Origin: Sphingomonadales bacterium
Lineage (GTDB): Bacteria; Pseudomonadota; Alphaproteobacteria; Sphingomonadales; Sphingomonadaceae
Direction: 5' to 3'
Assembly (NCBI GenBank): GCA_005773165.1
Contig: SXHP01000142.1
Location: forward strand, 1 to 39,732
DNA length: 39,732 nt
In this document: piece by piece, positions 10,685 through 31,971 of the stretch
Layout: each line of letters opens with the position of its first letter
Position numbering within the stretch: the first letter of the stretch is position 1
Translations under genes and position numbers: made by a program
The notes under the pieces: model-generated
Told to the model about the DNA's origin: nothing
Database searches by the model: none
The model's input: the letters and a program-made list of their open reading frames with translations, nothing else

Positions 10685-11722
10685 ATGCCCAATGTCACCA
10701 TCCGGGACGTGGCGCGCGAAGCGGCGGTGTCCGTCGCATCGGTGTCGCGGGTGATGAACGGCATGGGCAACGTCACCCCCGCGCTGCGCCGCCGGGTCGA
10801 GACCGCCGCCGCCGCGCTCGGCTATGTTCCGCATGCCGGAGCGCGCAACCTCAGCCTGGCGCGCGCCAACGCGATCGGTGTGGTGCTGCCCGACATCCAC
10901 GGCGAGTTCTTCTCCGAGGTGCTGCGCGGCATGGACCGGGAAGCGTCGGATCGCGGGCTGCAACTGCTCCTCTCCAACATGCACGCGGACGCCGACCTCG
11001 CGGTCCAGGCGCTGCGGACGATGCGCGGGCGGGTCGACGGAATGGTCGTCATGGCCCCCCACGTCGACCCCGACCAGCTCTTTGCGCAACTGCCGCCCGG
11101 AGTGCCCGTGGTGCTGGTCAATTGCGCGCCCCACCATGACAAGCGGCCCGAGATCCGCACCGACAATGCCGGCGGCGCGATCGCGATGGTCGACCATCTG
11201 GTCGCGGTGGGGCGGCGTCGGATCGTTCATGTGTCGGGGCCCCAGGGCAACATCGAGGCGGCGGAGCGGGCGCAGGGCTACAGCGCCGCGATGGCGCGCC
11301 ACGGCCTTTCGCCGCGGATCATCCCGGGCACCTTCATGGAGGAATCGGGCGCAGAGGCGGCCGAGGTGCTGCTGCGCGACCTTCAGGCGGTCGATGCGGT
11401 GTTCGCGGCCAATGACATGATGGCGATCGGCGCGCTGATGGCGTTCCGTCGCGCGGGCGTGACGGTGCCGGACCGGGTGGCGGTCGCGGGCTTCGACGAC
11501 ATTCCGCTCGCCCGACTCGTCTCGCCCAGCCTCACCACCATTCGCGCGGGCATCGCAGGCGTAGGGGCGCGCGCGATCGCCCGGCTCGCCGCCGCGATCG
11601 CGGGCGACGCGGACGACACCGTCGAGCTCTCGATACCCGAATTAGTGCCGCGTGAGACGACCGCCCTGACCGACCGACAACAAGCCCGGATCACGGGCCA
11701 ACAAAGGGGAACACGATCATGA
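10685..11722 (+). CDS. LacI-family transcriptional regulator
   Basis: VTIRDVAREAAVSVASVSRVMN HTH, hinge ARNL, FAANDMMAIG, VAGFDD. Confidence 0.95.
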   Translation: MPNVTIRDVAREAAVSVASVSRVMNGMGNVTPALRRRVETAAAALGYVPHAGARNLSLARANAIGVVLPDIHGEFFSEVLRGMDREASDRGLQLLLSNMHADADLAVQALRTMRGRVDGMVVMAPHVDPDQLFAQLPPGVPVVLVNCAPHHDKRPEIRTDNAGGAIAMVDHLVAVGRRRIVHVSGPQGNIEAAERAQGYSAAMARHGLSPRIIPGTFMEESGAEAAEVLLRDLQAVDAVFAANDMMAIGALMAFRRAGVTVPDRVAVAGFDDIPLARLVSPSLTTIRAGIAGVGARAIARLAAAIAGDADDTVELSIPELVPRETTALTDRQQARITGQQRGTRS

Positions 11723-14700: not shown

Positions 14701-14711
14701 TCTCTCCTGTC

Positions 14712-14750
14712 GGGGCGGATGGTGCGAACGCATCCTCCGCCCCTTTCTTT
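14712..14750 (+). terminator. Stem-loop with U-rich tail between the TBDR and GH144 genes
   Basis: GGGGCGGA..GTGCG-AA-CGCAT..TCCGCCCC followed by TTTCTTT. Confidence 0.65.
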
Positions 14751-14752
14751 AG

Positions 14753-16204: not shown

Positions 16205-17203
16205 ATGATCCCTGCCCCGCTGCTGCTGTACCTCGGCCACAACGCCGATCCGATGGGGATCAAGACGTCGCGAGGGCTCGCGATCTTCGCGCCGGAGAAG
16301 TGCGTCGGCGAGTTCCGCCACGACGATTGTCCGCAGACGCTGGGACTGCCGCGGATGGGAATCGCGGAGGGCGCGGCGGCGGGGGCGCGGACGCTGGTGC
16401 TGGGGATCGCGAACTCGGGCGGGACGATGGAGGCGAGCCTGGTCGAGGACGCGCTCGCCGCGATCGAAGCTGGGATGAACGTCGCGGCGGGGCTCCACCA
16501 GCGGCTGCGCGACCAGCCGCGCCTGGTCGAGGCGGCGCAGGCGAAAGGCGTTGAGCTGTTCGACGTGCGCGAACCGCCCGCGGACCTGCCGGTCGGGAAC
16601 GGACGGCCGCGCAGCGGGCGGCGGGTGCTGACCGTCGGGACCGACTGTTCGGCGGGAAAGATGTATACGACGCTGGCGCTGACCCGGGCGCTGCAGGCGC
16701 GCGGGATCGCGGCCGATTTCCGCGCGACGGGGCAGACGGGCATCCTGATCGCAGGGAGCGGCGTGCCGGTCGACGCGGTGGTCGCCGACTTCATCTCGGG
16801 CGCGATCGAGCAGCTTGCGCCTGCGCGCGAGGACGGCGGGTGGGACGTGATCGAGGGGCAAGGGTCGCTGTCGCACCCGTCGTTCGCGGGGGTGTCGACC
16901 GGGCTGCTCCACGGCGCGCAGCCGGAGGCGCTCGTGCTTTGCCATGTGCTGGGGCGCGAACATATGCGCGGGCTGCCGGGACAGCCGCTGCCGGGGCTCG
17001 CCGAGACGCTGGCGATGAATTTGGCCGTGGCCCGGCTGACTTCGCCGGAGGTGCGCGCGGTCGGCGTCTCGGTGAACACGTCGGCGCTGGACGAGGATGC
17101 GGCGCGGGCCGAGTGCGGCCGACTTGAGGATGAGCTGGCGCTGCCCTGCACCGATCCGATGCGCTTCGGCGTGGAGCGCATCGTCGACCGGCTGCTCGGG
17201 TGA
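16205..17203 (+). CDS. dgcN: DUF1611 protein, DgcN-type D-glutamate N-acetyltransferase
   Basis: VGTDCSAGKMYT, ATGQTG, DAVVADFISGAIE and EGQGSLSHP motifs. Coupled to a dipeptide-epimerase gene. Confidence 0.8.
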   Translation: MIPAPLLLYLGHNADPMGIKTSRGLAIFAPEKCVGEFRHDDCPQTLGLPRMGIAEGAAAGARTLVLGIANSGGTMEASLVEDALAAIEAGMNVAAGLHQRLRDQPRLVEAAQAKGVELFDVREPPADLPVGNGRPRSGRRVLTVGTDCSAGKMYTTLALTRALQARGIAADFRATGQTGILIAGSGVPVDAVVADFISGAIEQLAPAREDGGWDVIEGQGSLSHPSFAGVSTGLLHGAQPEALVLCHVLGREHMRGLPGQPLPGLAETLAMNLAVARLTSPEVRAVGVSVNTSALDEDAARAECGRLEDELALPCTDPMRFGVERIVDRLLG

Positions 17204-18186
17204 GACAGTTAGTCGCGCGCCACGAGCGGTTCGCGCTGCACACGCCGTTCCGCATCTCGCGCGGGGTGAAGGACGCGGCGGACGTGGTGACGGTGACGAT
17301 CCGCGACGGCGACGCGATCGGGCGCGGCGAAGGCGTGCCGTACCCGCGCTACGGCGAGAGCATCGAGGGGGTGCTCGCCGCGGTCGAGGGCGTGCGCGGC
17401 GCGGTCGAGGCGGGGGCGGACCGGCAGGTGCTGCTCGCGTTGCTGCCCGCGGGGTCTGCACGCAATGCTGTCGATTGCGCCTTGTGGGACCTGGAGGCGC
17501 GGCTGGCGGGGCGGAGCGTGTCGGCGATGCTCGGGGGGCCCCTGCCCGACGGCATCACGAGCGCGCTGACGATCGGGATCGACACGCCCGAGGCGATGGC
17601 CGAAGCCGCCGGGCGGGTCGCCTTTGCGCCGCTGATCAAGGTGAAGGTCGACGCCATCGCGCCCGCCGCGCAGCTTCGCGCTGTGCGAGGCGCAGCCCCC
17701 GATGCGGCGCTGATCGTCGATCCCAACGAGAGCTGGAATGCGGGCGTCGCGGCGGCGATGCGGCCGGTGCTGGTCGAGGCGAGGGTCGCGCTGCTCGAGC
17801 AGCCCGCGCCCGCCGATGCGGACGCCTGGCTTGAGGGGTTCGACATGGGTGCGCCGGTTTGCGCCGACGAATCGGTGCATGTCGCGGACGACCTCGATGC
17901 GCTCGGCAAGCGGTACGGCGTGGTCAACGTCAAGCTCGACAAGGCGGGCGGGCTGACCGCGGCGCTGGCGCTGGCGAAGGCGGCGCGCGCGCGGGGCCTG
18001 GGCGTGATGACCGGGTGCATGGTGTCGACCTCCCTGTCGATCGCGCCCGCGATGCACGTGGCGGCGGTGAGCGATTTCGTCGACCTCGACGGACCGTTGT
18101 GGCTCCGCGAGGATCGCGCGGGCGGGGTGCGTGACGAGCGCGGCGTCCTTGCACGCCTCGCCGCCGGCTTCTGGGGAGAGCCGTGA
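17200..18186 (+). CDS. dgcA: Enolase-superfamily L-Ala-D/L-Glu epimerase / N-acetyl-D-Glu racemase (DgcA/YcjG type)
   Basis: FRISRG, YPRYGES, ARNAVDCALWDLEA, KVK, DPNE, EQP, ADES, KLDKAGGLT, GCM, DLDGP. GTGA overlap with dgcN. Confidence 0.85.
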   Translation: MRQLVARHERFALHTPFRISRGVKDAADVVTVTIRDGDAIGRGEGVPYPRYGESIEGVLAAVEGVRGAVEAGADRQVLLALLPAGSARNAVDCALWDLEARLAGRSVSAMLGGPLPDGITSALTIGIDTPEAMAEAAGRVAFAPLIKVKVDAIAPAAQLRAVRGAAPDAALIVDPNESWNAGVAAAMRPVLVEARVALLEQPAPADADAWLEGFDMGAPVCADESVHVADDLDALGKRYGVVNVKLDKAGGLTAALALAKAARARGLGVMTGCMVSTSLSIAPAMHVAAVSDFVDLDGPLWLREDRAGGVRDERGVLARLAAGFWGEP

Positions 18187-19727
18187 TCGGGCGAACCGCG
18201 GCCGCGCTGCTCGCACTGGCGACGCTCGGGGCTGCGCCGGAGCAGGTCGACGTGCTGATCCGCGGCGGCACGGTTTATACGGGTTCGGATGCGCCGTTCG
18301 TCGGCGACGTGGCGGTGACCGGGGATCGTATCCGGTCGGTCGGCCGGGACGTCCGGCTCAGCGCGCGACGGACGATCGACGCGCGCGGCATGGTCGTCAC
18401 GCCGGGCTTCATCGACCCGCACACCCATATCGAGACGATGCTCGCGTCGGCCGATGCGCAGGAGCGGCTGGTGCTGCCGTTCCTGATGCAGGGGGTGACG
18501 ACCGCCTTCGTCGGCAACGACGGCGACGGCGCGGTCGACGTGGCGGCGACGCTCACACCCGCCGCGCCTGTCGGCGTCAACTACGCCGCCTATGTCGGCT
18601 TCGGGGCGGTGCGCCGCGCGGTGATCGGCGAGGCGCGGCGTGCGCCGAGCGAGACCGAGCTGGCGACAATGCGCGGGTTGGTGGCCCGGGGCATGTGCGA
18701 CGGCGCGCTGGGGCTGTCGACCGGGCTGTTCTACGCGCCGCAGAGTTTTGCGGAGACCGGCGAGGTGGTCGCGCTCGCCCGCGAGGCGGGGTCGCGCGGC
18801 GGCGTCTACGACACGCACATCCGTGACGAATCGAGCTACACCGTCGGGCTCGCCGCCGCGGTCGACGAGGCGATCGCGATCGGGCGCGCGGCGCGGATGC
18901 CGGTGCATGTCAGCCACATCAAGGCGCTCGGCGTCGACGTGCGGGGGCAGGCGCCGGCGATCGTCGCCAAGGTGGAGGCGGCGCGGCGACGCGGTCAAAA
19001 GGTGACCGCGGACCAATATCCGTGGAGCGCGAGCGGGACGACCTTGGTCTCGGCGCTGATCCCGTTGTGGGCGCAGGACGGCGGGCGAGAGGCGCTGCTC
19101 CGCCGCTTCGCCGATCCGGCGCTCGCCGGGCGGCTGCAGGCGGACCTCGCCGAGGGGCTGCGCAAGCGCGGCGGCGCGGAGGCGCTGCTCATCACCGGCG
19201 GCGCGGAGCGCGGGCGGACGCTGGCGGCGGTCGCGGCGCGGCTCGGGACGGATGCGGCCGGTGCGGCGATCGCGACGATCCGGGTTCACGACCCCGCCGT
19301 CGCTTCGTTCAACCAGAGCGAGAGCGACATCGCCGCGTTCATGGCGCGGCCGTGGGTGTTGACCGGATCGGACGCATCGGCGGGGCACCCGCGGGTCTAT
19401 GGCAGCTTCGCGCGCAAATACGCCAAGTACGTGCGGGCGGAGCATGTGCTGTCGCTGCGCCAGTTCATCGAGCGGAGTTCGCGGCTGACCGCGGACACGT
19501 TCGGGATCGCGGACCGCGGGCGGCTGCGGCGGGGCGCCTACGCCGACATCGTGATGTTCGATCCGGCGACCTATGCCGAGCGCGCGACCTACCAGCAGCC
19601 GACGCTTCTCGCGGCGGGGGTGCTGACGGTGCTGGTCAACGGCCGGGTCGTGGTCGACGGCGGGGTGGCGACAGGCGAAGCCGCCGGACGGCCGCTGCCG
19701 CGCACGCCGAAGCGGGGTTGCCCGTGA
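18183..19727 (+). CDS. N-acyl-D-amino-acid deacylase family amidohydrolase with predicted signal peptide
   Basis: PGFIDPHTH, QGVTT, GLSTGLFYAP, THIRDE, SHIK, DQYPW, GSD, HPRVYGSF, ADIVMFD. Hydrophobic N-terminus MIGRTAAALLALATLGA. Confidence 0.88.
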   Translation: MIGRTAAALLALATLGAAPEQVDVLIRGGTVYTGSDAPFVGDVAVTGDRIRSVGRDVRLSARRTIDARGMVVTPGFIDPHTHIETMLASADAQERLVLPFLMQGVTTAFVGNDGDGAVDVAATLTPAAPVGVNYAAYVGFGAVRRAVIGEARRAPSETELATMRGLVARGMCDGALGLSTGLFYAPQSFAETGEVVALAREAGSRGGVYDTHIRDESSYTVGLAAAVDEAIAIGRAARMPVHVSHIKALGVDVRGQAPAIVAKVEAARRRGQKVTADQYPWSASGTTLVSALIPLWAQDGGREALLRRFADPALAGRLQADLAEGLRKRGGAEALLITGGAERGRTLAAVAARLGTDAAGAAIATIRVHDPAVASFNQSESDIAAFMARPWVLTGSDASAGHPRVYGSFARKYAKYVRAEHVLSLRQFIERSSRLTADTFGIADRGRLRRGAYADIVMFDPATYAERATYQQPTLLAAGVLTVLVNGRVVVDGGVATGEAAGRPLPRTPKRGCP

Positions 19728-20965
19728 GCCGGTGGTTCGCGATTCCGTTGTGGAAGCGGGTGCTCGGCGGGCTCGCGCTCGGGCTCGTCTTCGCGCTCGT
19801 CTGGCCCGAAGGAACGCCGTACGTCGCGTTCATGGGCGACCTGTTCGTCCGCGCGATCCGGATGCTGGTCGCGCCGATCGTGCTGGTGACGATCGCGGCG
19901 GGGATCACGTCGCTCGCCGATCCCAAGCGGCTCGGGCGGCTGGGCGGACGGACGATCGCGCTGTTCGCGGGGACGACCTTCGTCTCGGTGTCGGTCGGCA
20001 TGGCCGTAGCGACCTTGGTCCGGCCGGGGGTGGGCGCGCCGCTGGGAACCGCCGCCCCGCATGCGCTCGGCCCGCCGGTGACCCCGTACGACCAGCTCGT
20101 CGGCATCGTGCCGCTCAACATCGTCGAGGCGCTGGCGAAGGGCGACATGCTCGCGCTGATCTTCGTCGCGATCCTGTTGGGGGTAGGCACGGTGCTGGCC
20201 GGCGAGGCGGGGCGGCCGTTCGCGCGGGGTTTGCAGGCGCTGTCGGCGGTGCTCCTGCGCGTCGTCGGCATCGTGATGGAGCTCACACCGTTCGGCGTCT
20301 TCGCGCTGATCGCGAACGCGGTCGCGGCGAACGGGGCGGCGGTGTTCGTCCATGTCGGCTGGTTGGCGCTGGCGGTCTTGATCGGATCGCTGGTGCAGGT
20401 CGTGGTGGTGCACAGCCTGGTGCTGCGCCTGCTCGCGCGGTTGCCGGTGGGGCCGTTCTTCCGCGGCGTCGTCGATGCGCTGGCGGTCGCCTTCTCGACC
20501 GCATCGAGCTCGGCGACGCTGCCGGTGGCGATGCGGGTGGCGGGCGAGAATCTCGGTGTAGGACGCCCGGTCTATTCGACGGTGCTGCCATTGGGCGCGA
20601 GCATCGGCAAGGACGGGACCGCGATGTATGTCGGGCTGCTCAGCCTGTTCGCGCTGCAGGCGTTCGGGACCCCGCTGACTCCGCAGGTCTATGCGACGGT
20701 GCTGCTGACGGGCGCGCTCGCCGCGTTCGGGACCGCGCCGGTACCGTCGGCGTCCCTGTTCATGCTGGCTGCGGTGCTGTCGGCCGTCGGCATAGCGCCC
20801 GAGCAGACCGCGCTGGTCGTCGGCTTCGTGCTGCCGTTCGACCGGCTGCTCGACATGACGCGGACGGTGCCGAGCGCCAGCGCAAACCTGACGGTGGCGA
20901 CGACGGTTGCGCGCTGGGAGGGCGAGCTCGACGAAGCGGTCTATCGCGCGCCGCCCGCGCGGTAG
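19724..20965 (+). CDS. Dicarboxylate/amino acid:cation symporter (DAACS/GltP family)
   Basis: GDLFVRAIRMLVAPIV, AFSTASSSATLP, PLGASIGKDGTA, DRLLDMTRT. GTG start overlaps the deacylase stop (GTGA). Confidence 0.92.
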   Translation: MSRWFAIPLWKRVLGGLALGLVFALVWPEGTPYVAFMGDLFVRAIRMLVAPIVLVTIAAGITSLADPKRLGRLGGRTIALFAGTTFVSVSVGMAVATLVRPGVGAPLGTAAPHALGPPVTPYDQLVGIVPLNIVEALAKGDMLALIFVAILLGVGTVLAGEAGRPFARGLQALSAVLLRVVGIVMELTPFGVFALIANAVAANGAAVFVHVGWLALAVLIGSLVQVVVVHSLVLRLLARLPVGPFFRGVVDALAVAFSTASSSATLPVAMRVAGENLGVGRPVYSTVLPLGASIGKDGTAMYVGLLSLFALQAFGTPLTPQVYATVLLTGALAAFGTAPVPSASLFMLAAVLSAVGIAPEQTALVVGFVLPFDRLLDMTRTVPSASANLTVATTVARWEGELDEAVYRAPPAR

Positions 20966-22782
20966 AAGCGCAGGTCGGCGAGCTCCAGCCGGACGCGCGT
21001 GCCCGGCGCACCTTCTAGGCGGAAGCGGAGCGCACGCAGGCCCGCCAGATCGAGGGTGCGCTTGGGGTCGTCGCTGACAAAGGCGGCGAAGGGAAGGCGT
21101 ATGTCGCGGGGGTTCGGGCCCGCCTGGAACTCCGCGGCGAAGAACCGCTCGGCGGGCAGACCGTGGCTGTCGAGCACGAGCCCGTACGCGCCCTGCCCGG
21201 TCGCGCGAAACGCCACGCCTGCGAAGCCGCGCGCGTCGGCGGGCACGATCGCGCCGCGGGTAAGCGGGACGATGAGGTAGGCGTAGGGCGGGCCGAATGC
21301 GCCCGGGCCCATCCGGGCGTCCGCGATCAGCCTCTCGCGTTCGCGAGTGATCCGAAGAATGCTGTGCGGCACGCCGGGCTCGGCAGCGTCGACCGGGAGG
21401 GTGCCAAGGTCGGTGCGCAGCCCGGTGCTCGCCGCGGTGAGGATCGGTCCGGTCATGCGATGCGGCGGCAGCGCCGTCGGCCGGTCGGAGGAGAGCCGCC
21501 TGCGGAGCGAGGCCAGCGCGACCTCACGCCCGCCAACGAACACGCGGGACACGTTCGAGAGGTCGGCGATCGACACGTCCGGGCGGCCGTCGACAAGGAT
21601 CAAATCCGCACGACGGCCGACCGCGATCCGGCCGTCGGGCGACCACAGGACGCGCGCCGACACGCCGGTCGCCGCGGCGAGCGCCTCCGCGGGAGAGAGG
21701 CCGAGTTCGGTCAGCAGCATGGTCTCACGGACCGCGCTGGAGCCGTGATAGACGCCGCCGACACCCGCGTCGGCGCCGACCGCGATGGGCACGCCCGCGG
21801 CGTGGAGGCGGCGGATGTTGGCGCGCATGGTCGACCAGCGGCGCGCGTCGCGCGGGGGCACGGGCTTTCGGCGGATAGCCGTCTCGTACCTCAGCTCGGG
21901 CGGTCGCAGGCGGGTTCGTTCGACCTCGGTGAGGCGGCGCTCGGCCAGCGGCTCGAAGGCGACGAGCGTGGGGATGTAGGCAGTGCCGCGCGCGCGCATG
22001 GCGGCGATCAGCGCGTCGTCGACTGCCAAGTCGCCGACGCCGTGGCCGAGCGCGTCGACGCCCGCCGCGGCCGCCTTCTTCGCCCCGTCGAGCGTCGTCG
22101 TATGGCTGATGACAGGGACGCGCGCGCCGTGCGCCGTCTCGACGATCGCGGTGAGCGTCGCGGCGTCCATATCGACGAGATCGGGCGAGCGGCCGTAGCG
22201 CCAGCCGTCGACGAACACCTTGATGACGTCAGGCCGATAGCCGAGCGCGCGGCGGACCGCGGCGCGGCCCTCACGCGGGGTGGCGGCCTCCAGCGTGAAC
22301 GCGCGGCCCCAGCCGTATTCGGTCCCATGTCCGCCCGGTGGGGCTATGCGTACGGCGAGCGCGAGCCGCGGAGCGGGAATAGGGCCTGATCCCACGAGCG
22401 CGCGGACTCCCGCCGCCATCTCGCCCGAAAGCGAGAAGTCGGCCACCCGCGTGACGCCCGCCGCCAGGTGACCGGCGTACGCCTTGGCGACATCGTCGGC
22501 GCCGCCGAAGCCGGTCGCGCGCGCATGGATGTGGAGGTCGGAGAGGCCGGGCAGCAGCGTCTGGCCATGTGCGTCGACCACGCGCGCGCCGCGCGGCGCG
22601 GCGATGCGAGGGCCGATCGCCGCTATACGATCGCCCGTCACGAGCACGTCGGCGACCGCCGCGGGCGCACCCGTGCCGTCGAAGACGCGCGCGCCGCGGA
22701 TCAGAGTCGACGGCTGCGCAGCGGGCCGCGGCTCGACGCCGATCAGCAGCGTCGCAAGCAGGGCGAGCACGGTACGGATCAT
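20941..22782 (-). CDS. Secreted metal-dependent amidohydrolase fused to a C-terminal CIA30/CBM-like domain
   Basis: Signal peptide, LPGLSDLHIH, VIKVF, SHT, GHG, GADAG, RADLILVDG. The C-terminal beta-rich region (DARGFAGVAFRATG...IRLPFAAF...LELADLRFY) resembles CIA30. Confidence 0.78.
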   Translation of the reverse strand: MIRTVLALLATLLIGVEPRPAAQPSTLIRGARVFDGTGAPAAVADVLVTGDRIAAIGPRIAAPRGARVVDAHGQTLLPGLSDLHIHARATGFGGADDVAKAYAGHLAAGVTRVADFSLSGEMAAGVRALVGSGPIPAPRLALAVRIAPPGGHGTEYGWGRAFTLEAATPREGRAAVRRALGYRPDVIKVFVDGWRYGRSPDLVDMDAATLTAIVETAHGARVPVISHTTTLDGAKKAAAAGVDALGHGVGDLAVDDALIAAMRARGTAYIPTLVAFEPLAERRLTEVERTRLRPPELRYETAIRRKPVPPRDARRWSTMRANIRRLHAAGVPIAVGADAGVGGVYHGSSAVRETMLLTELGLSPAEALAAATGVSARVLWSPDGRIAVGRRADLILVDGRPDVSIADLSNVSRVFVGGREVALASLRRRLSSDRPTALPPHRMTGPILTAASTGLRTDLGTLPVDAAEPGVPHSILRITRERERLIADARMGPGAFGPPYAYLIVPLTRGAIVPADARGFAGVAFRATGQGAYGLVLDSHGLPAERFFAAEFQAGPNPRDIRLPFAAFVSDDPKRTLDLAGLRALRFRLEGAPGTRVRLELADLRFYRAGGAR

Positions 22783-22864
22783 GGCGGTGAAACTCTGCGG
22801 GGCGCGGGGTCAGGGGGCAAGCCCTCCATTGTGCCGGACCGCGCGGGCGCTAGGCTGGGCACGT

Positions 22865-24274
22865 ATGCGGATCACCCTCCTCGCCGTCCTCGTCGTCACC
22901 GCCGCACCCGCGTACGCGCAGACCCCGCTCGCCGAGCGTGTCGCCGCTGCTTTGGCGTCCCAAGGGCCGGGCACGCGATTCGGCCTGGTCGTCGCGGACG
23001 AGGACGGGCGCGAGATCGTGGCGATCGCGCCGGACGCCCGCTTCGTGCCCGCATCGAACACCAAGCTGTTCACCACCGCCGCCGCCTTCGCGACGCTCGG
23101 CGACGTGACGCGCGACGATGCGGAGGGCGGCGCGGCGGTGCGCCTGGAGGGCCGTGACGTGGTGCTGGAGGGGCGCGGCGATGCGCGACTGTCGAGCGCT
23201 GCGAATTGCGTGCGCGACTGCCTGGCGACGCTTGCCGACGCGGTAGCGGCGCGGACGCGGGCCGTGCGCGACGTCGTTGGCGACGACACGCTGTTCCCCG
23301 ACGAGCGGTGGAGCCCGGGGATGAGCTGGAACAACATTGAGACGCGGTCGGGAACCGGAGTCTCGGCGCTGACGCTCGACGACAATGAGGTGGTGCTGCG
23401 GGTGACTCCCGCGGGTGCGATCAAGGGGCCGGGTTACTACCGGATAGACGATCGGGTGACGGCCGCGGCCAAGACCGACCTGCGCTTCAGCCGGATGCCT
23501 GGGAGCGACCGGGTGCGGGTCGAGGGCACGATCCGCGGGGACGGCGCGGCCGAGGTCCTGCGGCTCGGCATCGACGATCCCGCGCATCATGCCGCGTGGC
23601 GGCTGCGAGCGATGCTGGTCGCGCGCGGGGTTCGGGTGACCGGGCGTGTCGCGGTGCGGCATCGGCCGCTCACGCCTGCCGACGATCCGGCGGTGCGCGG
23701 CGCGACGCCCCCTGCCCGGCCGCCGCGGAACGCGCCGCTGGCGCAGCTCGCCGCGCCGCCGCTCCTCGCCGATCTGGCGGTGATCAACAAGGCGAGCCAG
23801 AACGTCCATGCCGAGCTGCTGCTGCGCCGGGTCGGGCTGGTCGCCGGGACGGGGTCGATCGCCGACGGGCAGGCGGCGGTTCGGACGATGTTGGGCCGGG
23901 CTGGGCTCGAGCGATGGCGGTACGACTTTTCCGACGGGTCGGGGATGTCGAGCTACAACCGGGTGAGTCCGCGCGGGGTCGTGCGGTTCCTGCGCTGGAC
24001 GCAAGCGCAGCCCTGGGGCGCGGCGTTCCGCGAGACGCTGCCGGTGGGCGGGGTCGACGGCACGCTGCGGCGGCGGTTCGTAGGGACTCCGCTCCAAGGC
24101 AAGGTGTTCGCCAAGACAGGTTCGCTCAACGCGGCGTCGGCGTTGGCGGGGTGGATGGTGGCGGCGAGCGGGAAGACGCTGACCTTTGCGGCCTATGCGG
24201 CCGACATGCCGGAAGACCGTTCGGCGAGCGCCGCGGTGGATGCGGCGCTCGGGCTCATCGCGGCGGAGAACTGA
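22865..24274 (+). CDS. dacB: D-Ala-D-Ala carboxypeptidase/endopeptidase (PBP4, peptidase S13)
   Basis: Signal peptide, PASNTKLFT (SxxK), KASQNVHAE (SxN), DGSGMS, GVDGTL, AKTGSL (KTG). Confidence 0.92.
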   Translation: MRITLLAVLVVTAAPAYAQTPLAERVAAALASQGPGTRFGLVVADEDGREIVAIAPDARFVPASNTKLFTTAAAFATLGDVTRDDAEGGAAVRLEGRDVVLEGRGDARLSSAANCVRDCLATLADAVAARTRAVRDVVGDDTLFPDERWSPGMSWNNIETRSGTGVSALTLDDNEVVLRVTPAGAIKGPGYYRIDDRVTAAAKTDLRFSRMPGSDRVRVEGTIRGDGAAEVLRLGIDDPAHHAAWRLRAMLVARGVRVTGRVAVRHRPLTPADDPAVRGATPPARPPRNAPLAQLAAPPLLADLAVINKASQNVHAELLLRRVGLVAGTGSIADGQAAVRTMLGRAGLERWRYDFSDGSGMSSYNRVSPRGVVRFLRWTQAQPWGAAFRETLPVGGVDGTLRRRFVGTPLQGKVFAKTGSLNAASALAGWMVAASGKTLTFAAYAADMPEDRSASAAVDAALGLIAAEN

Positions 24275-25262
24275 AGGCGGCGATCACCGCGTCGCCGACA
24301 GCGGGGCGGAGCGCGGCGATGCCGCTCTCGCGGTGGCGGGTCGGGTGGACGCGGTTGGTGAGCAAGGTCCAGGCGAGGTTGCGGTCGAAGTCGACCCACA
24401 AGCCGGTGCCGGTGAAGCCTGTATGGCCGATCGTCGCGTCGGAGCAGGCGTCTCCGCCGGGCCAACCGGGGAAACGGCGCTCCCAACCGGCGGTGCGATG
24501 GCCGTTGGTGCGCTGACGGATCGCCTGAAGCATCGCGGGCGACGCGCCGCTGCCGTCGAGCAGTCCGCGCGCGAAATCGAGAACGCCGTCGACGGTCCCG
24601 AACAGCCCGGCATGCCCCGCCGCGCCGCCGAGCGCCCATGCGTTCTCGTCGTGAACCTCGCCCTTGAGCACGCGACCGCGCCAGGTGCAGGCTTCGGTCG
24701 CGACCGCGGGCCCTTGCGGCCTGAATGCGAGGCCGGGCGGGAGCGGCCAGGCGTCGAGCCCCGCGCCGGTGATCCGCTCGGTCGCGATGCCGAGCAGGAT
24801 GAAGTTGATGTCGGAATAGACCGGCGGGCCGCGCCGCCACGCGCGCTGGAGGACGAAGGCGCGGAGGCGGGCGGGGTCGCCGCCATAGGTGTAGACCGGC
24901 TCGACCGCGGGCAGGTGCGTGTTGTGCGCGAGGCAGTCGCGAAAGGTCAGGCGGCGCTCGGGCGCGCCCTCTACGTCGTACTGGCGCAGGTCGGGGATCG
25001 CGTCGGTGAGCGGGCGGTCGAGGTCGAGGCGGCCCTCGTCGGCGAGGCGAAGGATCATCGTCGTCGTCGCGATCACCTTGCTGACCGAAGCGAGGTCGAA
25101 CCAGTGTTCGCGGCTGAGCGGCTCTCGTTCGGGGACGAGCGCGGCCAGCCCCGCGAGCTTCACCCAGCGCTCGCCTTCGCGGGTGACGACGCCGAGCGTC
25201 GCGCCGGGGATGCGGCCGTCCGCGACCGCGGCGGCGGCGGGGGCGAAGGCTTGGTCGATCAT
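24255..25262 (-). CDS. Cytoplasmic beta-lactamase-fold serine hydrolase, YbbE(AmiE)/YfeW-like
   Basis: FDLASVSK (SxxK), YSDINF, GEVHDENA, GHAGLFG, GHTGFTG, LLTNRVHP. No signal peptide. ATG overlaps the ampG stop (ATGA). Confidence 0.85.
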   Translation of the reverse strand: MIDQAFAPAAAAVADGRIPGATLGVVTREGERWVKLAGLAALVPEREPLSREHWFDLASVSKVIATTTMILRLADEGRLDLDRPLTDAIPDLRQYDVEGAPERRLTFRDCLAHNTHLPAVEPVYTYGGDPARLRAFVLQRAWRRGPPVYSDINFILLGIATERITGAGLDAWPLPPGLAFRPQGPAVATEACTWRGRVLKGEVHDENAWALGGAAGHAGLFGTVDGVLDFARGLLDGSGASPAMLQAIRQRTNGHRTAGWERRFPGWPGGDACSDATIGHTGFTGTGLWVDFDRNLAWTLLTNRVHPTRHRESGIAALRPAVGDAVIAAFSSPPR

Positions 25263-26758
25263 CGGTCGTCGGCGCGCGGGCGGATGCGCGCGAGGGCGGG
25301 GAGAAAAGCGATCGCGGCTAGGCTCAATACGCCCGAGGCGAGAAAGAACAGGTCGAACCCGGAGTAACCTGCGCGGTCGAGCCGCTCGACGACGACCCCG
25401 CCCGCCCCCGCCAGCAGTCTCGGCAGCAGGAAGGCGAAGCCCGACAGAAAGGCGTATTGCGCGCCGGGGTAGCGCGGGTTGACCAGCATCGACAGGTAGA
25501 CGACGAACACCGCGCCGGCCATGCCGTTGCCGAACTGATCGGCGAAGGTGGCGAGGTAGAGCAGCGGCTCGCTGACGCGCTGGTGCGCCAGCCAGACGAA
25601 GCCGAAATTGCCGAGTGCGGCGAACACCGCCGCTATCGCCAGCGCGCGGCCGAGCGGCGGCCGGGTGGCGAGCCAGCCGCCGATCCCGACTCCGCCCAAG
25701 CTGGCGGCGAGCGCGACCAGGCTGTCGGCGCGGCCGATCGCGCTCAGCGAATAGCCGAGGCTCTTGATCATGGGCTTCGACAGGTTGAGCGCGAGCACGT
25801 CGCCCATCCGGTAAAGCGATACAAAGGCGAGCACGACCAGCGCCGCCGTTCCATAACGCCAGAAGATATCGACATAGGGTCCGATCGCCGCCGAAGTGCG
25901 CAGCCGCGAGGTCGGCGGCGCCCGCCTGATCCGCGGGAGGGCGATCGCCATCGCGGCGAACGGCAGCAGCGCCAGGGCCAGGACGTAGGGCGTGACATTC
26001 GCCTCGCCGTCGAGGCCTGCCTGCGCGAATAGGGTCAGCGCGACGGCGCCTACGCCCGCGACGAGGAGCATCGCGGCCAACAGCAATGCGGCGCTCGCCG
26101 CCAGCCCGGTCGCGAGCGCGACGCTGCGCCCTCCCCCGCCGTCCGCCTGCGGGCGCATCGCGGCGAGGATCGGAAACGGCGCAAACGCCGCCGCCGCGAT
26201 CACCAGATAGGCCGCGGTCCATCCCGCGCCGTCGGCGACGAGCAAGGCGCCGCTCCCCGCCGCAACCATCGCGCTCCTGTAGCCCCACAGGTTGGCGGCG
26301 ACGATCGGACCTTGCTCCGCTTCGGTCGGCGCGAGCTCGATCCGCCAGGCGTCTGCGGCGACCTCCAGCGTCGTCGTCCAGAAAGCGAGCAGCACCGCGA
26401 ACAGCGCGGTGACGCCGAGGCTGCGGTCGTCGGAGGTCCACGCCATCGCCGCGGTCGAAGAGACAATGCCGAGCTGCGCCAGCATGATCCACCCTCGCCG
26501 CTTGCCCCAGAAGCGCGCGAAACCCGGCACGTCGTAGCGGTCGAGCAGCGGCGCCCAGGCGAATCTGAAGGTCGGCAGGAGTTGGACCCAGGCGAAGAAG
26601 CCGATCACCGCAAGCGTCACGCCGTGCTCCGCCAGCCGCAGCGCGAGCACCGTCGAGAACATGTAGAACGGCAGCCCCGCCGAGAAGCCGAGAACCCCGA
26701 ACAGCGCGAGCCGCGCCTTGGTGGACGGGCGCTCGGAGACGGGACGCGGCGCGTGCAT
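25259..26758 (-). CDS. ampG: AmpG-family muropeptide MFS permease
   Basis: LGFSAGLPF, FAWAPLLDR, GKRRGW, VAADAWRIE, GYR, LYRMGD, YPGAQYAFLS. Start assigned to ATG at 26758. Confidence 0.82.
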   Translation of the reverse strand: MHAPRPVSERPSTKARLALFGVLGFSAGLPFYMFSTVLALRLAEHGVTLAVIGFFAWVQLLPTFRFAWAPLLDRYDVPGFARFWGKRRGWIMLAQLGIVSSTAAMAWTSDDRSLGVTALFAVLLAFWTTTLEVAADAWRIELAPTEAEQGPIVAANLWGYRSAMVAAGSGALLVADGAGWTAAYLVIAAAAFAPFPILAAMRPQADGGGGRSVALATGLAASAALLLAAMLLVAGVGAVALTLFAQAGLDGEANVTPYVLALALLPFAAMAIALPRIRRAPPTSRLRTSAAIGPYVDIFWRYGTAALVVLAFVSLYRMGDVLALNLSKPMIKSLGYSLSAIGRADSLVALAASLGGVGIGGWLATRPPLGRALAIAAVFAALGNFGFVWLAHQRVSEPLLYLATFADQFGNGMAGAVFVVYLSMLVNPRYPGAQYAFLSGFAFLLPRLLAGAGGVVVERLDRAGYSGFDLFFLASGVLSLAAIAFLPALARIRPRADDR

Positions 26759-26882
26759 GGGCCGACGGTCGGGCCCTGCGCGCCTCGCGTCAACCGCCGC
26801 GCGAATTCTCTGGCGTTGTGTGACGGTTTTGTTGTGTATTGGAGGAAAGCGCCGGGGGGAGGCGCACAAGGGGAAGACGACA

Positions 26883-29800
26883 ATGCGCACATCCAAGTCC
26901 GTCCTGCGGTTGCTGCTGTCCGGCTCGGCGATCGCCACGCTCGCGGGCGGGACAGCATGGGCGCAGAACCCGCCGACCGGCGACCAGACCACGCCGCCCG
27001 CGGCGACGCCCACCGGAGCGGCGACGCCCGCGACCGGGGCCGGGGAAAGCGACGCGCCGACTTCGCGCGACATCCTGGTGACCGGATCGCGGATCCGCCA
27101 AGACCCGAACAGATCGGCGCTGCCGCTGCAGATCGTCACCACGGCCGATCTGTCGCGCGAAGGGATCAACAGCCCCGAGCAGCTCATCTCGTTCCTCAGC
27201 ACCAACGGCAACGGCGCGGACAACCTCGCTTCCAACGCCGACGTCACCAGCGGCGCGCAGCGCGGCACCAACGGGCTTTCGGCCGCGAACCTGCGTGGGC
27301 AGGGATCGGCGTCGACCCTGGTGCTGCTCAACGGTCGGCGGGTCGCGGCGCACGGGCTGCAGGGCGCGGCGGTGGACGTGAACCAGATCCCGTTCGCCGC
27401 GCTCGACCGGGTCGAGGTGCTGAAAGACGGCGCGTCGGCGATCTACGGCACCGACGCGATCGGCGGCGTGATCAACTTCATAACCAAGAAGAACTTCCAG
27501 GGGCTGTCGCTCAGCGGCTTCACCGACATCACCCAGCGCGGCGACAGCCCGATCTATCGGCTGTCCGCAACGGCCGGCTACGGCGATCTGGCGAGCCAGG
27601 GCTTCAACATCATGGGCGCGGTCAGCAAAAGCTGGAACGGCGACTTGTTCGGGGCAGAACGCGATTTCGTGAACACGAACCAGCCCAATCGCGGGCTGTC
27701 CGCCGACACGCGCGGCACGCCGATCGCGACCGCGTTTCCGATCAACCGGACCGCCGCGAACGTAGGCATCGCCCAGAACGGGACCCTGCTCGGCGATACG
27801 GCCCAGTGTTCGTCGGGAACCGCGCCGAACTGCACCGTGTTCAACCCCAACTTCCTTGCGAACCGCCCCGGCTTCTTCATTCCGGGCACCACCGTCCCTG
27901 CGACGGGCGGGATCAACGTGCTCGACCTACCCGGCGGCGCGGGATGCGACTCGGTGCCGCTCGGCTTCGCTTATGACGAACAGCTCTGGAACATTCCCGG
28001 AGCCCGCTTCGCCTGCGCCTACGACACGGGGCGCGTCGCGGTGCTGCAGCAGCCTTTGGAGACGCTGACCTATTACGGCCGCGGCACGGTGCGGTTCGGC
28101 AGCCATGAGTTGTTCGCCGAGGTGACCGGGTCCGACGCCGATTCGGCCAAGCGCTTCTCCGAGAACCAATACACCGCCAACAACGCCGCGCTGCCGATCG
28201 CCTATCCGCTCAACGCGCTCACCGCGGCGACATATAACGACGTCTACAACCGCATCGCCGCCGTCTTTCCGGGCATTGCAGTGAATTATGGGAAGCCGAT
28301 CAGCTTCCGCTATCGCTGCCTCGCCTGCGGCGTCCGCGAATACACCACCAGCACCAAGACGTTCCGCGGCGCAGTCGGGATCGAGGGGCCGCTGTTCGGC
28401 GGCTGGGACTATCGCGCGGGCGGGTCCTATGCGCGCAGCGAATCCTCGTCGCTGCTCGGCAGCGGCTATCATTTCCGCGGCGTGTTCCCCACCGCGGGCG
28501 CGGCGCTCGGTTCGGGTATCGCGGGAGCCACCGCCGCCGGGCAGGCGGACCCGCGTGCGCCGACCGCGCCCGGCGCGAGCGCTCCCGGCATCGTCGGGCT
28601 GTTCAACAGCGGCATCCTCAATCCCTTCTCCGTCACTCAGACCCCGCAGGCTCTGGCGGGGCTCGAAGCGGTGTCGGCGCGGGGAACGCGGCTTTACGGC
28701 GGCAAGTACGAAGTGACGCAGTTCGACGGATCGGTGTCGGGCCGACTGTTCGATCTGCCCGGAGGCGCGGTGCAGGCGGCTGTGGGCGTGGATTACCGCC
28801 GCGAGTCCTACAGCTTCGACGGCTCAACCGCGGCGACGATCGCGTCGCCCGACATCTTCAACGTCGCCTTCGACAACATCAACGCGCTCGCGGGGGTGCG
28901 CCGCACGGTCAAGGCGGCGTTCGGTGAAATCTCGTTCCCGATCTTCCAGCCGCTGGAGATCACGCTTGCGGGTCGGATCGACGACTATACCGGCTTCGGC
29001 ACCACGACCAATCCGAAGGTCACCGCCAAGTTCACCCCGGTCGATTGGCTGCTGGTCCGCGCATCGTACAACACCGGCTTCCGGGTGCCGACGTTCAACC
29101 AGATCTTCAACGGAACGACCGTGTCGCCCAATCCGGGCAATACGCGGGTCGATCCAACGACCTGCCCCGCCGGCGGCACGCCCAACGTCACGCCGGGCTG
29201 CGCGGTGATAACTCCGGACACGCTGAGCGGCGGCAATCTGACGCTCGAGCCCGAGACGTCGGAGCAGTATAGCGCGGGCGTGGTGTTCCAGCCGACGCCG
29301 CGGTTCAGCGCCTCCGTCGATTTCTGGAGCATCGCGGTCGACAACACGATCGGCGCGCTGACGATCGATCAGTTGCTGCAGAACATCACGTTCTTCCCGG
29401 ATCGGGTCGGACGCGAAAACGGCATCATCACGGGGCTTGATCTGCGGTCGGACAACATCGGCTCGCGGCGTACCCAGGGCCTGGAGATCATGCTGCGCGG
29501 CGGCGTCGACGCGTTCGGCGGGCAGCTCACCGCGGGACTCGACGGCACGCGGCTGCTCAAGAAGAAGGAAAAGCTGTTCCCGGCGGCGAATTATCGCGAC
29601 ATCATCGGCATATTCACCTTCGTCGGCGACATCGGGCTGAAGTGGAAGCACAATGCGTTCGTCACTTGGTCGAACGACGACTTCATCGTGACGCTGTCGC
29701 AGATCTTCCGCAGCAGCTATCGCAACTGTGCGCCGCCGGAATGCACGGTCGCGGCGCTGGCGCGGCCGGACTACAATCCCCGGGTCAAGTCGTACACGCT

Positions 29801-29993
29801 GTACAACATGTCGGCGGGCGTGCGGATACAGGAGGGCATGCAGCTGACCTTCGGCATCCGCAATCTGCTCGACCGCGACCCGCCGTTTGCGATCACCTAT
29901 GACTCGAACACAGGCGCGGGCAGCTCGTGGGAGCCGCGCGTCGCTGATCCGCGTGGGCGCTCGTTCACCGCGGCAGTGGAAGTGAAGTTCTGA
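26883..29993 (+). CDS. TonB-dependent receptor with Cys-rich loops
   Basis: SD AAGGGG, signal peptide ending [55 protein letters not shown]-terminal VKF. Confidence 0.95.
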
Positions 29994-31117
29994 TCGCGCT
30001 CGCGCTGCTCGCGGCGGCGCAGCCCGTCGCGAGCGTGCGGGTCGGTTTCGACCGGCGCGGCGTGACGGCGATTGCGGCTGCGGGGTGGGCCGACGTCGCG
30101 GCCAAGCGCGTGGTGACCGCCGACGATCCGGTGCGGGTCGCGTCCATCTCCAAGCTGGTGGTCGCGATTGCGGTGCTGCGACTGGTCGAGCAGAAGCGGC
30201 TGGACCTGGACGAAGATGTGTCGCGGCTCCTCGGCTGGCGGTTGCGCAATCCGGCGTTCCCTGACGTGCCCATCACGCTCAGGCTGCTGCTGTCGCACCG
30301 AGCAAGCCTTGCCGACGGCATCGACTATGTGCTGCCGCTAGACGTGGGAATGCGTGAGGCGCTCGCCGACGCGCGGGCTTGGGACCCCGATCACGCGCCG
30401 GGCAGCTATTTCCGCTACGCGAACGTCGGCTATCCGGTGATCGCCAGCGTGATGGAGCGCGCGAGCGGCGAGCGGTTCGATCGACTGATGAAGCGGCTGG
30501 TGCTTGATCCGCTTAAGCTCGACGCTTGCTACAATTGGGCGACCTGCTCCGATGCGACGACGGCGCGCGCCGTGGTGCTCTATCGCGACGGCGCAGCGGT
30601 GCGCGATGATCACCGGGGCGGACGCCCAGCCTGCCCCGTTCAGCCCGCGCGTGACGGCGGCTGCGACCTGACGACGTGGGCGGCGGGACGGAACGGAGCC
30701 TCCTTCTCGCCGCAGGGCGGCTTGCGCATCTCGGCGCGCGGACTGGCCAAGATCGGCCGGTTGCTGCTCGGGCGCGGTGCGGTCGACGGGGTCCGACTGC
30801 TCACGCCACGCTCGGCCGCGCTATTGGAGCAGCCGCTCTGGCGATTCGATCGCGATAACGGCGAACCGGAGGGCGGTTTCTACTGCCGTTACGGCCTTGG
30901 CGTGACCTTCACGGCTACGGCGATTGGCGGTTGCCGCGACGATCCGGTGGGCGACGGGCGCACGCGGATCGGCCATGCGGGCGAAGCTTACGGCCTCCGC
31001 TCGGGGCTCTGGATCGATCGCGAACGCGGCACAGGCGTGGCGTTCTTCGCGACGGACGTGCCCGCCGAGCCGGGTCGTTCCGCCTTCACCGCAACCGAGG
31101 AGCGGCTCGCGCGCTGA
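29990..31117 (+). CDS. Secreted beta-lactamase-fold serine hydrolase (class C / D-peptidase-like)
   Basis: RVASISK (SxxK), LLSHRAS, YAN (YxN), [16 protein letters not shown]. The in-frame signal peptide begins at CTG 29990; the ORF track start is GTG 30035. Confidence 0.82.
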
Positions 31118-31971
31118 TCCGCAAGCTGCTCGGCGGCGACCCGCTGGAGCGCGATCGCGACCGCGGGCGCAATGCCGAGGTCGTCGGCAGCCCGCTCCTG
31201 CCCGCCCAGCGTGCGCGGATCGACCCCCGTCACCTTGCCGAAGACGACCAGTGCCTCAAGGTATGCGCCGTGAACGCTGGCGTGATACTGATCGTGGGTC
31301 CACAGATCGATCTGGCCGAAAGCGATGCCGTCATAGGGGTTCGAATCCGCGACGCGCTGCGCAATGGCGCGGCTCCATGCTTCGCCGACCGGGATGACCC
31401 CGTCGATCTCCGGCGAGGCCGCGTCGATCGCCCGCGCGGCGGCCGCAAGATCGTTCGCCATTGCGGTGACGAGCTTGCCTGACCATGGGCTCCCGGGACG
31501 ATAGGTGAGGTCGGCGCGGCTCCAGGTCGCCATCAGCTGAACCTGGACGGCCGGGTTCGCGCGACTGAACATCTGCGCCAGGCGGACCGCGTCGCGCGTA
31601 TAGGCGCTCGCATCCCCGGGGCGATCGGCGTCAAGCGTGCTGTACTCCTGAAGCACGACGACGTCCCAGGCGCGGTCGAACAACCCGCGGCGCTGATCGT
31701 AGTGGAAGCCGAGTGACTGTCCGCCCTGCGTGGCGTGGCTGACCGCATAGGCGAGCTTCGCCTGCTCGGCGAACACCTTGAAGAGGGCCGGGACGCCGCC
31801 CTGACCGCTTCGTGTAAGGTCGGTGACCGTGTCGGGGCGGTAGCGGCGAATGGCCGACAGCGCCCCTTGCGTGAAGCTGTTGCCGACGAACAGGATGGTG
31901 CGAGGACGCGCCGTCTGCGCCGCGGCGGGCAGCGACGGGACGCAGAGGAGCAAAGCCAGGAGGAAACGCAT
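30988..31971 (-). CDS. Secreted SGNH/GDSL-like hydrolase (DUF4886-like)
   Basis: Signal peptide [19 protein letters not shown], block [27 protein letters not shown], block V DQYH (DxxH). Confidence 0.75.

Follow-up and report, generated by a model that had tools for sequence, protein, structure and literature searches.

Results

Eleven genes around a TonB-dependent receptor

The window analyzed here is a stretch of 39,732 nucleotides (contig C106 in our numbering) from a Sphingomonadales genome assembly of 66.8% completeness; the names of close homologues point to Sphingomonas. Positions 16205..31971 hold a candidate peptidoglycan utilization locus centered on a TonB-dependent receptor (TBDR). 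The original prediction had described eleven contiguous genes around one TBDR, and all of them were found intact: eleven uninterrupted open reading frames fill the interval, and a codon-model gene caller returned the identical set (Table 1). The plus strand carries dgcN, dgcA, a D-aminoacylase-like gene and the gene of a DAACS symporter, followed by an amidohydrolase gene (minus), dacB (plus), a serine hydrolase gene and ampG2 (minus), the TBDR gene and a second serine hydrolase gene (plus) and a DUF4886/SGNH gene (minus). This layout amounts to at least six blocks of opposite orientation and not to a single operon. Convergent gene pairs overlap at their 3′ ends at 20941-20965 (25 bases), 24255-24274 (20 bases) and 30988-31117 (130 bases). 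The G+C content of the locus (0.712) is near that of the genome (0.693) and thus bears no mark of recent acquisition. Five signal peptides had been predicted (D-aminoacylase-like protein, amidohydrolase, DacB, second serine hydrolase and SGNH protein), and inspection together with a crude N-terminal hydrophobicity scan backed all of them. Judged from their sequences, the enzymes look active. Ten of the eleven genes appear to form one system, while the SGNH/DUF4886 gene looks like a passenger.

Table 1. Genes and features of the locus, with the roles suggested by their families
Position	Strand	Feature	Supporting match
16205..17203	+	DgcN (DUF1611), predicted D-glutamate N-acetyltransferase, cytoplasmic	NF041892, 504.9 bits vs cut-off 480; PF07755, PF17396
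17200..18186	+	DgcA, predicted N-acetyl-D-Glu racemase, clade of L-Ala-D/L-Glu epimerase YcjG	NF042940, 416.4 vs cut-off 400
18183..19727	+	D-aminoacylase-like amidohydrolase, exported	PDB D-aminoacylases, E 3.5e-67; N-acyl-D-glutamate deacylase, E 1.4e-58
19724..20965	+	DAACS/SDF symporter, candidate D-Glu importer	PF00375, E 6e-97; DctA and GltP models under cut-off
20941..22782	-	Cc2672-type metallo-carboxypeptidase (predicted), exported, C-terminal CIA30/CBM11-like beta-sandwich	Foldseek top match 3mtw, E 1e-29
22865..24274	+	DacB/PBP4 (peptidase S13), predicted DD-endo/carboxypeptidase, exported	TIGR00666, 187.7 vs cut-off 107.8
24255..25262	-	SxxK serine hydrolase of PBP4b/YfeW type, cytoplasmic, overlaps ampG2	PF00144; top NCBIfam match PRK03642, E 1.6e-21, 76.7 vs cut-off 385
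25259..26758	-	AmpG2, second AmpG-family permease (predicted muropeptide permease)	TIGR00901, 330 vs cut-off 350
26759..26882	.	Divergent ampG2/TBDR intergenic region, promoter-like elements (putative function)	Elements recur in related loci
26883..29993	+	TonB-dependent receptor, clade A, no N-terminal signaling domain	PF07715 and PF00593 only; clade support 100
29990..31117	+	SxxK/YxN serine hydrolase (PF00144), exported, candidate D-Ala-specific peptidase	PF00144, E 7.5e-46
30988..31971	-	DUF4886/SGNH-type hydrolase, exported, probably outside the system	SGNH-type motifs; in 1 of 80 clade-A loci

Receptor clade A keeps peptidoglycan enzymes as neighbors

No close solved relative of the TBDR was found, and its structural matches were at the level of the plug; 3618 of 7997 scored homologues matched at E ≤ 1e-100. 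The receptor belongs to a clade (clade A) that occurs in Sphingomonadales, Burkholderiales, Opitutae and Lysobacteraceae. A class-wide search recovered the clade in none of 400 Alphaproteobacteria drawn evenly by family, a weak negative with two candidates scored per genome and three genomes from the family of the window. The neighborhoods of clade A were taken from the best 80 of 607 candidate loci in a scan of genome contigs (identity, 37 to 76%). Their genes were called and clustered, cluster representatives were named by Pfam and NCBIfam, and marker matches, all of at least 116 bits, were counted within 10 kb. At least one of DacB, LdcA-type S66, DdpX (M15), Amidase_2 and MurQ was present in 61 of the 80 loci, compared to none of 20 paralogous TBDR loci. 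The positives comprised 28 of 35 loci from Sphingomonadales, 28 of 30 from Betaproteobacteria, 2 of 7 from Opitutae and 3 of 8 others, and the signal held in 11 of the 15 named families. With a wider marker set, 66 of the 80 loci and 1 of the 20 controls were positive, the single control match being a locus of a second receptor clade (clade B, see below). The marker hidden Markov models (HMMs) detected MurQ, YcjG, YfeW and MppA of Escherichia coli and missed MpaA. The clade keeps peptidoglycan enzymes as neighbors in three lineages, which supports the original prediction. Its cultured carriers include Sphingomonas sp. Root241, S. mali NBRC 15500 and Allopontixanthobacter sediminis KCTC 42453 and, for the betaproteobacterial form, Massilia rubra CCM 8692.

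The neighbor families vary by lineage, yet all act on peptidoglycan. The 35 Sphingomonadales loci held DacB (23 loci), AmpG-family permeases (11), the PBP4b-type hydrolase (10) and LdcA-type S66 (5), and homologues of the exported serine hydrolase were present in 14 of all 80 loci. Among the 30 betaproteobacterial loci, we found DacB in 24, S66 and D-Ala-D-Ala dipeptidase in 21 each, Amidase_2 in 11, M14 in 10, family-5 binding proteins in 8, MurQ in 5 and GHL10, a family seen in betaproteobacterial and Opitutae loci only, in 8. A Gate-domain membrane protein was present in 10 of the 30. In a Lacunisphaera clade-A locus that also carries MurQ, GHL10, an epimerase and an AmpG-like major facilitator superfamily (MFS) protein, a D-aminoacylase-like domain is fused to DacB (L070:2433-5432). 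The diaminopimelate decarboxylase gene lysA lies near or beside the TBDR gene in seven loci (L015, L019, L085, L118, L136, L150 and L151); in five genomes checked, a second copy above cut-off was found in two, and the lysA of the locus was the sole copy found in three. LysA was also present in 2 of 16 sphingomonad loci taken around DacB.

Database entries call the receptor an "iron complex outer membrane receptor", and AmpG and RhtX/FptX are related. Together with the several opposite-strand blocks and the SGNH passenger, this would fit an iron-siderophore uptake unit (a TBDR, an RhtX/FptX-like MFS protein and hydrolases) or unrelated genes brought together by chance. We regard either as most improbable: AmpG2 scored 70.9 with the RhtX/FptX model (TIGR02718; cut-off, 356) versus 330 with the AmpG model, the TBDR has no signaling domain, the window has no Fur-like box, and the same members recur across genera in differing orders.

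Three further observations concern the receptors. A contig labeled Klebsiella pneumoniae, from a metagenome-assembled genome, holds a clade-A TBDR and S66 at a G+C content of 67.5% (L046) and was probably mis-binned. The nearest TBDR paralogue in the genome of the window (C347:1956-5144; 28% identity) lies near an alanine-racemase-like gene, and paralogues of similar identity in two other genomes (G017 and G021; loci L115 and L116) neighbor D-amino-acid-dehydrogenase-like and gamma-glutamyltransferase-like genes, all judged by eye from N-termini. These paralogues possibly represent another D-amino-acid uptake family.

Co-conservation in family genomes and a second receptor clade

The family survey comprised 150 genomes with a completeness of at least 95%. 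Clade-A TBDRs were found in 15 of them, DacB in 26, the PBP4b-type hydrolase in 14, the D-aminoacylase-like protein in 25 and DUF1611 genes in 35, in 21 of them with at least 60% identity. The genes of the locus are accessory and travel together. They are co-conserved around a TBDR with orders shuffled among relatives, which supports the original prediction on this point. All ten genes plus SGNH occurred together in the closest relative only (G587), and a further genome (G010) carries nine. The possibility that DacB is a housekeeping copy was dismissed because so few family genomes have it.

A second TBDR clade (clade B; at least 57% identity to its query) was found in 13 of the 150 genomes, and the two clades co-occurred in only 1 of the 27 genomes with either. 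DacB was present in 21 of these 27 genomes versus 5 of the 123 others, dgcN orthologues in 16 versus 5 and the PBP4b-type hydrolase in 12 versus 2. In ten genomes, DacB, dgcN and the PBP4b-type hydrolase all lay no more than 20 kb from the receptor, which was of clade B in eight and of clade A in two. Most family genomes with this cluster have clade B instead of clade A. We considered whether the clades are sisters, but each was supported at 100 and they stood apart on a tree of 66 receptors (built with FastTree only and rooted at the midpoint, with 24 of the 95 clade-A rows retained and the receptor of the window added). From its neighborhoods, clade B appears to fill the same slot in other genomes as a non-sister clade.

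These distributions bear on whether the locus merely recaptures the cell's own wall fragments that have leaked past the outer membrane, with no feeding on foreign walls. TonB-dependent uptake of self-derived fragments has been proposed for NixC of Xanthomonas (PMC4173781), all enzyme families of the locus serve endogenous recycling too, and sequence cannot separate self from foreign fragments. The genome, however, has a separate housekeeping set (AmpG on contig C219, Amidase_2 on C17, S66 on C120 and a NagZ-like protein on C315), the receptors are patchy in the survey, and DgcN and DgcA would destroy D-Glu instead of returning it to wall synthesis. We therefore consider pure self-recycling unlikely.

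A D-glutamate module

The genes dgcN and dgcA are adjacent, and both products exceed equivalog cut-offs. This D-glutamate pathway, reportedly the work of Yu et al. 2023, has DgcH, an N-acetyl-L-Glu deacetylase, as its third enzyme. DgcA had been predicted to be an Ala-Glu epimerase. It missed the YcjG cut-off (309 versus 343) and passed that for DgcA; the R24 equivalent and the KxK and DxD motifs of YcjG are nevertheless kept, the motifs KxK, D/E/D, K and DxD are conserved in 17 to 18 of 18 homologues, and identity to E. coli YcjG is 48%. Thus, activity as an N-acetyl-D-Glu racemase or as an Ala-Glu epimerase is possible. A second DUF1611 clade of about 50% identity, with up to seven copies per genome, was seen in G535 and other family genomes, twice beside clade-B-like TBDRs.

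The D-aminoacylase-like gene lies within 5 kb of dgcN in 18 of 21 genomes. Compared with D-aminoacylases of the AfDam/BbDam type, its product has the metal-binding histidines H80, H82, H212 and H245, the catalytic D397 and the carboxylate-pocket residues Y184, K247, Y279 and R404, while the equivalent of Ser291 is a glycine. In 21 of 21 homologues, an aspartate (D113) replaces the bridging cysteine ligand, and GxDG is present in all 21. An N-acyl-D-glutamate deacylase of Bordetella (Cummings et al. 2009) is said to cut L-Xaa-D-Glu dipeptides too. We also considered a role in chitin oxidation like that of OngB (GlcNAc1A deacetylase), in which Ser292 is described as the specificity position, occupied by threonine in D-aminoacylases (PMC12017989). 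This role was discarded, since the protein has T286 at that position and scored 155 bits to OngB versus 230 to D-aminoacylase.

Peptidases and serine hydrolases

The residues that form the metal site of the amidohydrolase (H84, H86, K188, H227, H247 and D338) are invariant in 41 rows. The structures nearest to its model (predicted local distance difference test [pLDDT], 90.5) were the Caulobacter L-Lys/L-Arg carboxypeptidase Cc2672 (3mtw) and a putative prolidase. The original prediction had named a CIA30 domain. Pfam CIA30 was absent in the protein of the window and weak in 16 of 41 homologues; the C-terminal domain folded alone (pLDDT, 76) nevertheless matched 7zkq_A, a complex I assembly chain that is presumably the CIA30 subunit, and CBM11 with a Z score of 15.7. 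From this model, the label seems reasonable. DacB has the catalytic motifs S64-K67, S311-N313 and K417-T-G, and SxxK, SxN and KTG are conserved in 42 homologues.

Both PF00144 proteins retain the SxxK and tyrosine motifs. The PBP4b-type hydrolase is 26% identical to E. coli YfeW and has its SxxK, YSD, VHDE and GHTG motifs in common with that protein; it lacks a signal peptide, and a profile search found no close solved structure. AmiE of Bacillus subtilis presumably belongs to the same family. By analogy, the protein is a candidate muramyl-L-Ala amidase; in E. coli, yfeW is reported to lie in the murQP operon (PMC5061867). The exported serine hydrolase probably starts at a CTG that overlaps the TBDR stop codon (CTGA, 29990-29993). 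The same overlap is present in one related locus (L011), and other homologues begin with Met there.

The SGNH protein had been counted as a member of the system, which was not supported. None of 14 family homologues lies within 30 kb of dgcN or the D-aminoacylase-like gene, and a role as peptidoglycan O-acetylesterase of the locus was discarded on these grounds. In the structure Atlas, the protein matched just unnamed clusters and DUF4886.

The presence of two PF00144 hydrolases, a penicillin-binding protein and a D-aminoacylase-like enzyme would also suit another D-amino-acid or acylated substrate, such as poly-gamma-D-glutamate oligomers, nonribosomal peptides or beta-lactam-like molecules, and penicillin-amidase-family genes occur in six related loci. 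Class C beta-lactamase models scored far under their cut-offs on the proteins of the locus, and such a substrate would leave LdcA, DdpX, Amidase_2, MurQ, LysA and AmpG beside the same receptor clade unexplained, making it very unlikely. The penicillin-amidase-family proteins are exported and recur (six among L117 to L156, plus L098; e.g., L121:4597-6984 and L098:11597-13957); we speculate that the gamma-D-glutamyl bond of stem peptides might be their natural substrate.

AmpG2 and the nature of the imported fragment

AmpG2 is additional to a canonical AmpG (TIGR00901, 416; contig C219) in the genome of the window, and the same holds in five of five complete relatives. For AmpG, substrate residues K62, D125, Y152, R153 and R365 and proton sites D238 and E326 have been described (PMC12214514). 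AmpG2 keeps D129, Y152, R153 and D238, has the conservative changes K62R, D125E and E326D and carries its R365-equivalent arginine one column away. At the K62 position, 24 of 24 homologues have lysine, and AmpG2 of the window has arginine. In betaproteobacterial and Opitutae loci, a different AmpG-like MFS subfamily is present (cluster c7, L048 to L090), all 13 rows of which show D238E and R365M.

The original prediction had noted that nagZ, anmK and murQ are absent from the window, which we confirmed (amgK was not searched for), and had concluded that the system is directed at the peptide moiety. In that view, free stem peptides and other small peptides with D-amino acids would enter through the TBDR, and the specificity of AmpG2 would have moved to peptides. 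This would agree with the lack of a sugar enzyme in the locus and with the changes D125E and E326D and the displaced arginine of AmpG2. A smaller dgcN-dgcA-D-aminoacylase module, lacking DacB and the PBP4b-type hydrolase, lies beside clade-B-like TBDRs in three genomes (G542, G443 and G547), and related loci add penicillin-amidase-family enzymes and S9 peptidases (8 of 16 sphingomonad loci taken around DacB); both point in the same direction. On the other hand, AmpG2 retains the sugar-binding Y152 and R153 and a basic residue at position 62, betaproteobacterial clade-A loci hold MurQ, GHL10 and Amidase_2 in the numbers given above, and MurQ is present in 5 of 16 related sphingomonad loci, three of which also carry NagA and NagB-II. 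Related loci also encode NagK, and nagZ-like and nagA genes are found elsewhere in the genome of the window. A system for peptides only is therefore rather unlikely, and the conclusion drawn from the missing sugar genes was not supported. Because the anhydro-N-acetylmuramic acid (anhMurNAc)- and N-acetylglucosamine (GlcNAc)-binding positions of AmpG2 are kept and because sugar-processing genes occur in related loci and elsewhere in the genome, the substrate is more likely to be whole muropeptides (disaccharide-peptides) than stem peptides alone.

Regulation and adjacent loci

The original prediction had described a regulator as absent from the window. A LacI regulator does lie in the window, in a separate locus (see below), and none lies in 16205..31971. 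This absence is restricted to this lineage: a LysR gene flanks dgcN in 12 of 12 related loci having dgcN. An orthologue was found neither in the incomplete assembly, where the best match reached 117 bits (orthologues score about 290 or higher), nor in the 18 kb upstream of dgcN in the closest relative. The best NCBIfam match of this LysR is PRK11013 (140 versus a cut-off of 288), which presumably models the activator of lysA in E. coli; a role in sensing diaminopimelate is thus no more than a lead. Consensus scans for promoters, terminators, paired LysR boxes and Fur boxes gave nothing above chance, and no consensus promoter site was found in the ampG2/TBDR intergenic region. This gap contains a TTGTT(G/A)CTTAAT-like element and a TTGAC on the opposite strand, which recur in related loci.

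Upstream, positions 8248-16147 form a separate TBDR locus, probably for beta-glucans, with a GH3 beta-glucosidase (BglX model, 712, above 666), a LacI regulator (10685-11722), a TBDR and a glycoamylase-family enzyme (PF10091). It abuts dgcN in the window. We rejected this unit as a part of the system, since homologues of its glycoamylase, LacI and GH3 proteins are present in none of the 80 clade-A loci and since about 12.7 kb of other genes separate it from dgcN in the closest relative. Positions 3-8156 hold a cluster of the lipid/polyhydroxyalkanoate (PHA) type (PHA synthase-like fragment, GNAT, alpha/beta hydrolase, Sir2, phasin, wax-ester synthase and a P450-reductase fusion of 1064 aa); a similar cluster adjoins a clade-A TBDR in another genome (G009, locus L004). 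Positions 38080-39621, after a DUF6445 gene, encode a member of the di-heme cytochrome c peroxidase family that weakly matches RoxB and is truncated by the end of the contig.

Discussion

A proposed pathway for muropeptide feeding

The locus is real, conserved and uncharacterized, and it most likely serves feeding on soluble peptidoglycan fragments. From its gene content and neighborhoods, we consider it probable that it encodes a TonB-dependent system that takes up muropeptides for carbon and nitrogen. In the proposed pathway, the TBDR would draw disaccharide-peptides across the outer membrane. DacB would open DD cross-links and remove terminal D-Ala, and the exported SxxK hydrolase would take off further D-Ala. 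The Cc2672-type carboxypeptidase may remove the diamino acid, a role that MpaA-like M14 enzymes would have in betaproteobacterial loci, and the exported D-aminoacylase-like enzyme may release D-Glu from L-Ala-D-Glu or N-acyl-D-Glu; its export would prevent it from reversing the cytoplasmic DgcN reaction. D-Glu would be brought in by the DAACS symporter and turned towards L-Glu by DgcN and DgcA, the latter of which may epimerize L-Ala-D-Glu too. AmpG2 would import the sugar-bearing remainder, from which the co-transcribed PBP4b-type hydrolase would strip residual peptide. The sugars would then be handled by NagZ and NagA, whose genes lie elsewhere, or by MurQ, NagK, NagA and NagB, whose genes form part of the locus in other genomes. 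Since no glycosidase is encoded, the substrate is likely to be presolubilized debris and not intact sacculi.

Several points weigh against this interpretation. No peptidoglycan marker was found in 14 of the 80 clade-A loci, 8 of which are full length, and many clade-A receptors sit in reduced or orphan loci. In the marker comparison itself, the 80 test loci also supplied the HMMs, the controls came from Sphingomonadales only, and kin are not independent. Among the 15 clade-A genomes of the survey, DacB lies within 20 kb of the receptor in 7, and DacB, dgcN and the PBP4b-type hydrolase do so together in 2. Neither the Cys ligand nor the Ser291 equivalent is present in the D-aminoacylase-like enzyme, which leaves its substrate assignment loose, AmpG2 falls under the TIGR00901 cut-off with its R365 equivalent displaced, and the substrates of the two serine hydrolases and the carboxypeptidase are assigned by family analogy only. 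Searches of the assembly for AnmK and MurQ found neither, which is weak evidence at its completeness.

A broader reading, which we hold only tentatively and as something short of an even prospect, is that clade A is a dedicated muropeptide importer anchoring a widespread peptidoglycan utilization locus in soil and freshwater Proteobacteria and Verrucomicrobiota. The sphingomonads would then have rebuilt the downstream pathway from nonhomologous parts (a Cc2672-type diaminopimelate carboxypeptidase, a periplasmic D-aminoacylase with a Cys-to-Asp exchange as Ala-D-Glu dipeptidase and a PBP4b-type cytoplasmic amidase) and recruited a second, non-sister TBDR clade to fill that slot.

Much organic carbon and nitrogen is stored in bacterial walls, which are also a main source of the D-amino acids of soils and waters. 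The passage of wall fragments across the outer membrane of Gram-negative heterotrophs is nevertheless barely known, the one precedent found being the indirect NixC result from Xanthomonas. We found no published account of the combination of genes seen here, of a TonB-dependent locus for peptidoglycan utilization, of TonB-dependent uptake of exogenous muropeptides or of DUF1611 together with TonB in a search outside of which lay most subscription papers and supplements, and the supplements of papers on TBDRs or D-amino acids may list such loci. The locus names a receptor clade, a permease and an enzyme set. If the proposal is true, the receptor gene would serve to mark necromass feeders in metagenomes, the DgcN-DgcA pathway would gain an upstream source in the form of a route that brings it D-Glu, and several orphan hydrolase families would get natural substrates.

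Comparison with known systems

The clusters mpaA-ycjG-mppA and murQ-murP-yfeW of E. coli and murQ-murR-murP-amiE-nagZ of B. subtilis (PMC5061867, PMC6403190) share with the locus a YcjG-like epimerase and a YfeW/PBP4b-like hydrolase whose gene adjoins that of a transporter for muropeptides or N-acetylmuramic acid (MurNAc), but have no dedicated outer-membrane importer. MpaA had no match among the proteins of the window or the genes called in the assembly, and MppA had none among the proteins of the window. The recycling and nag clusters of Caulobacter crescentus represent an alphaproteobacterial route via AmpG, AmiR and NagZ, and a breakdown of the peptide stems into amino acids has been suggested for it (PMC13046382). 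That route is housekeeping recycling, however, and its TBDRs sit in GlcNAc clusters. The genome of the window likewise has a separate nag locus (contig C163), whose TBDR is absent from the matches of the window receptor at E ≤ 1e-5. Tannerella forsythia also exploits the walls of other bacteria, and its AmpG accepts nonanhydro GlcNAc-MurNAc as well; in contrast, this organism is a MurNAc auxotroph that salvages the sugar for its own wall, and the main text of the report neither mentions TonB nor, where seen, describes D-Glu catabolism (PMC7670621). With the DgcN-DgcA pathway as outlined in PMC12363236 and PMC10845958, the locus shares the adjacent gene pair above both cut-offs (Table 1), but in this locus, it is accompanied by a TBDR, exported peptidases and AmpG2.

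A further close parallel is offered by the carbohydrate utilization loci containing a TBDR (CUT loci) and the Nix TBDRs of Xanthomonas campestris, which likewise combine a TBDR without SusD with periplasmic hydrolases and inner-membrane transporters. NixC has been proposed, on indirect genetic evidence, as an importer of peptidoglycan degradation products. The Nix system is controlled by GlcNAc and based on glycoside hydrolases, whereas the locus described here is based on peptidases and has DgcN-DgcA and its own AmpG (PMC4173781). The original prediction had spoken of an import system like a polysaccharide utilization locus (PUL). In support of this, the TBDR is clustered and co-conserved with exported hydrolases and inner-membrane transporters; it does not extend to a SusC/SusD pair, as no SusD family was found on any of the eleven proteins and the SusC/RagA model scored 20.2 versus a cut-off of 368, or to a glycoside hydrolase, none of which was detected among the eleven proteins. 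For want of a glycoside hydrolase and of SusD, the locus is a strict member of neither group, but judging by its composition, it would work like a CUT locus or PUL.

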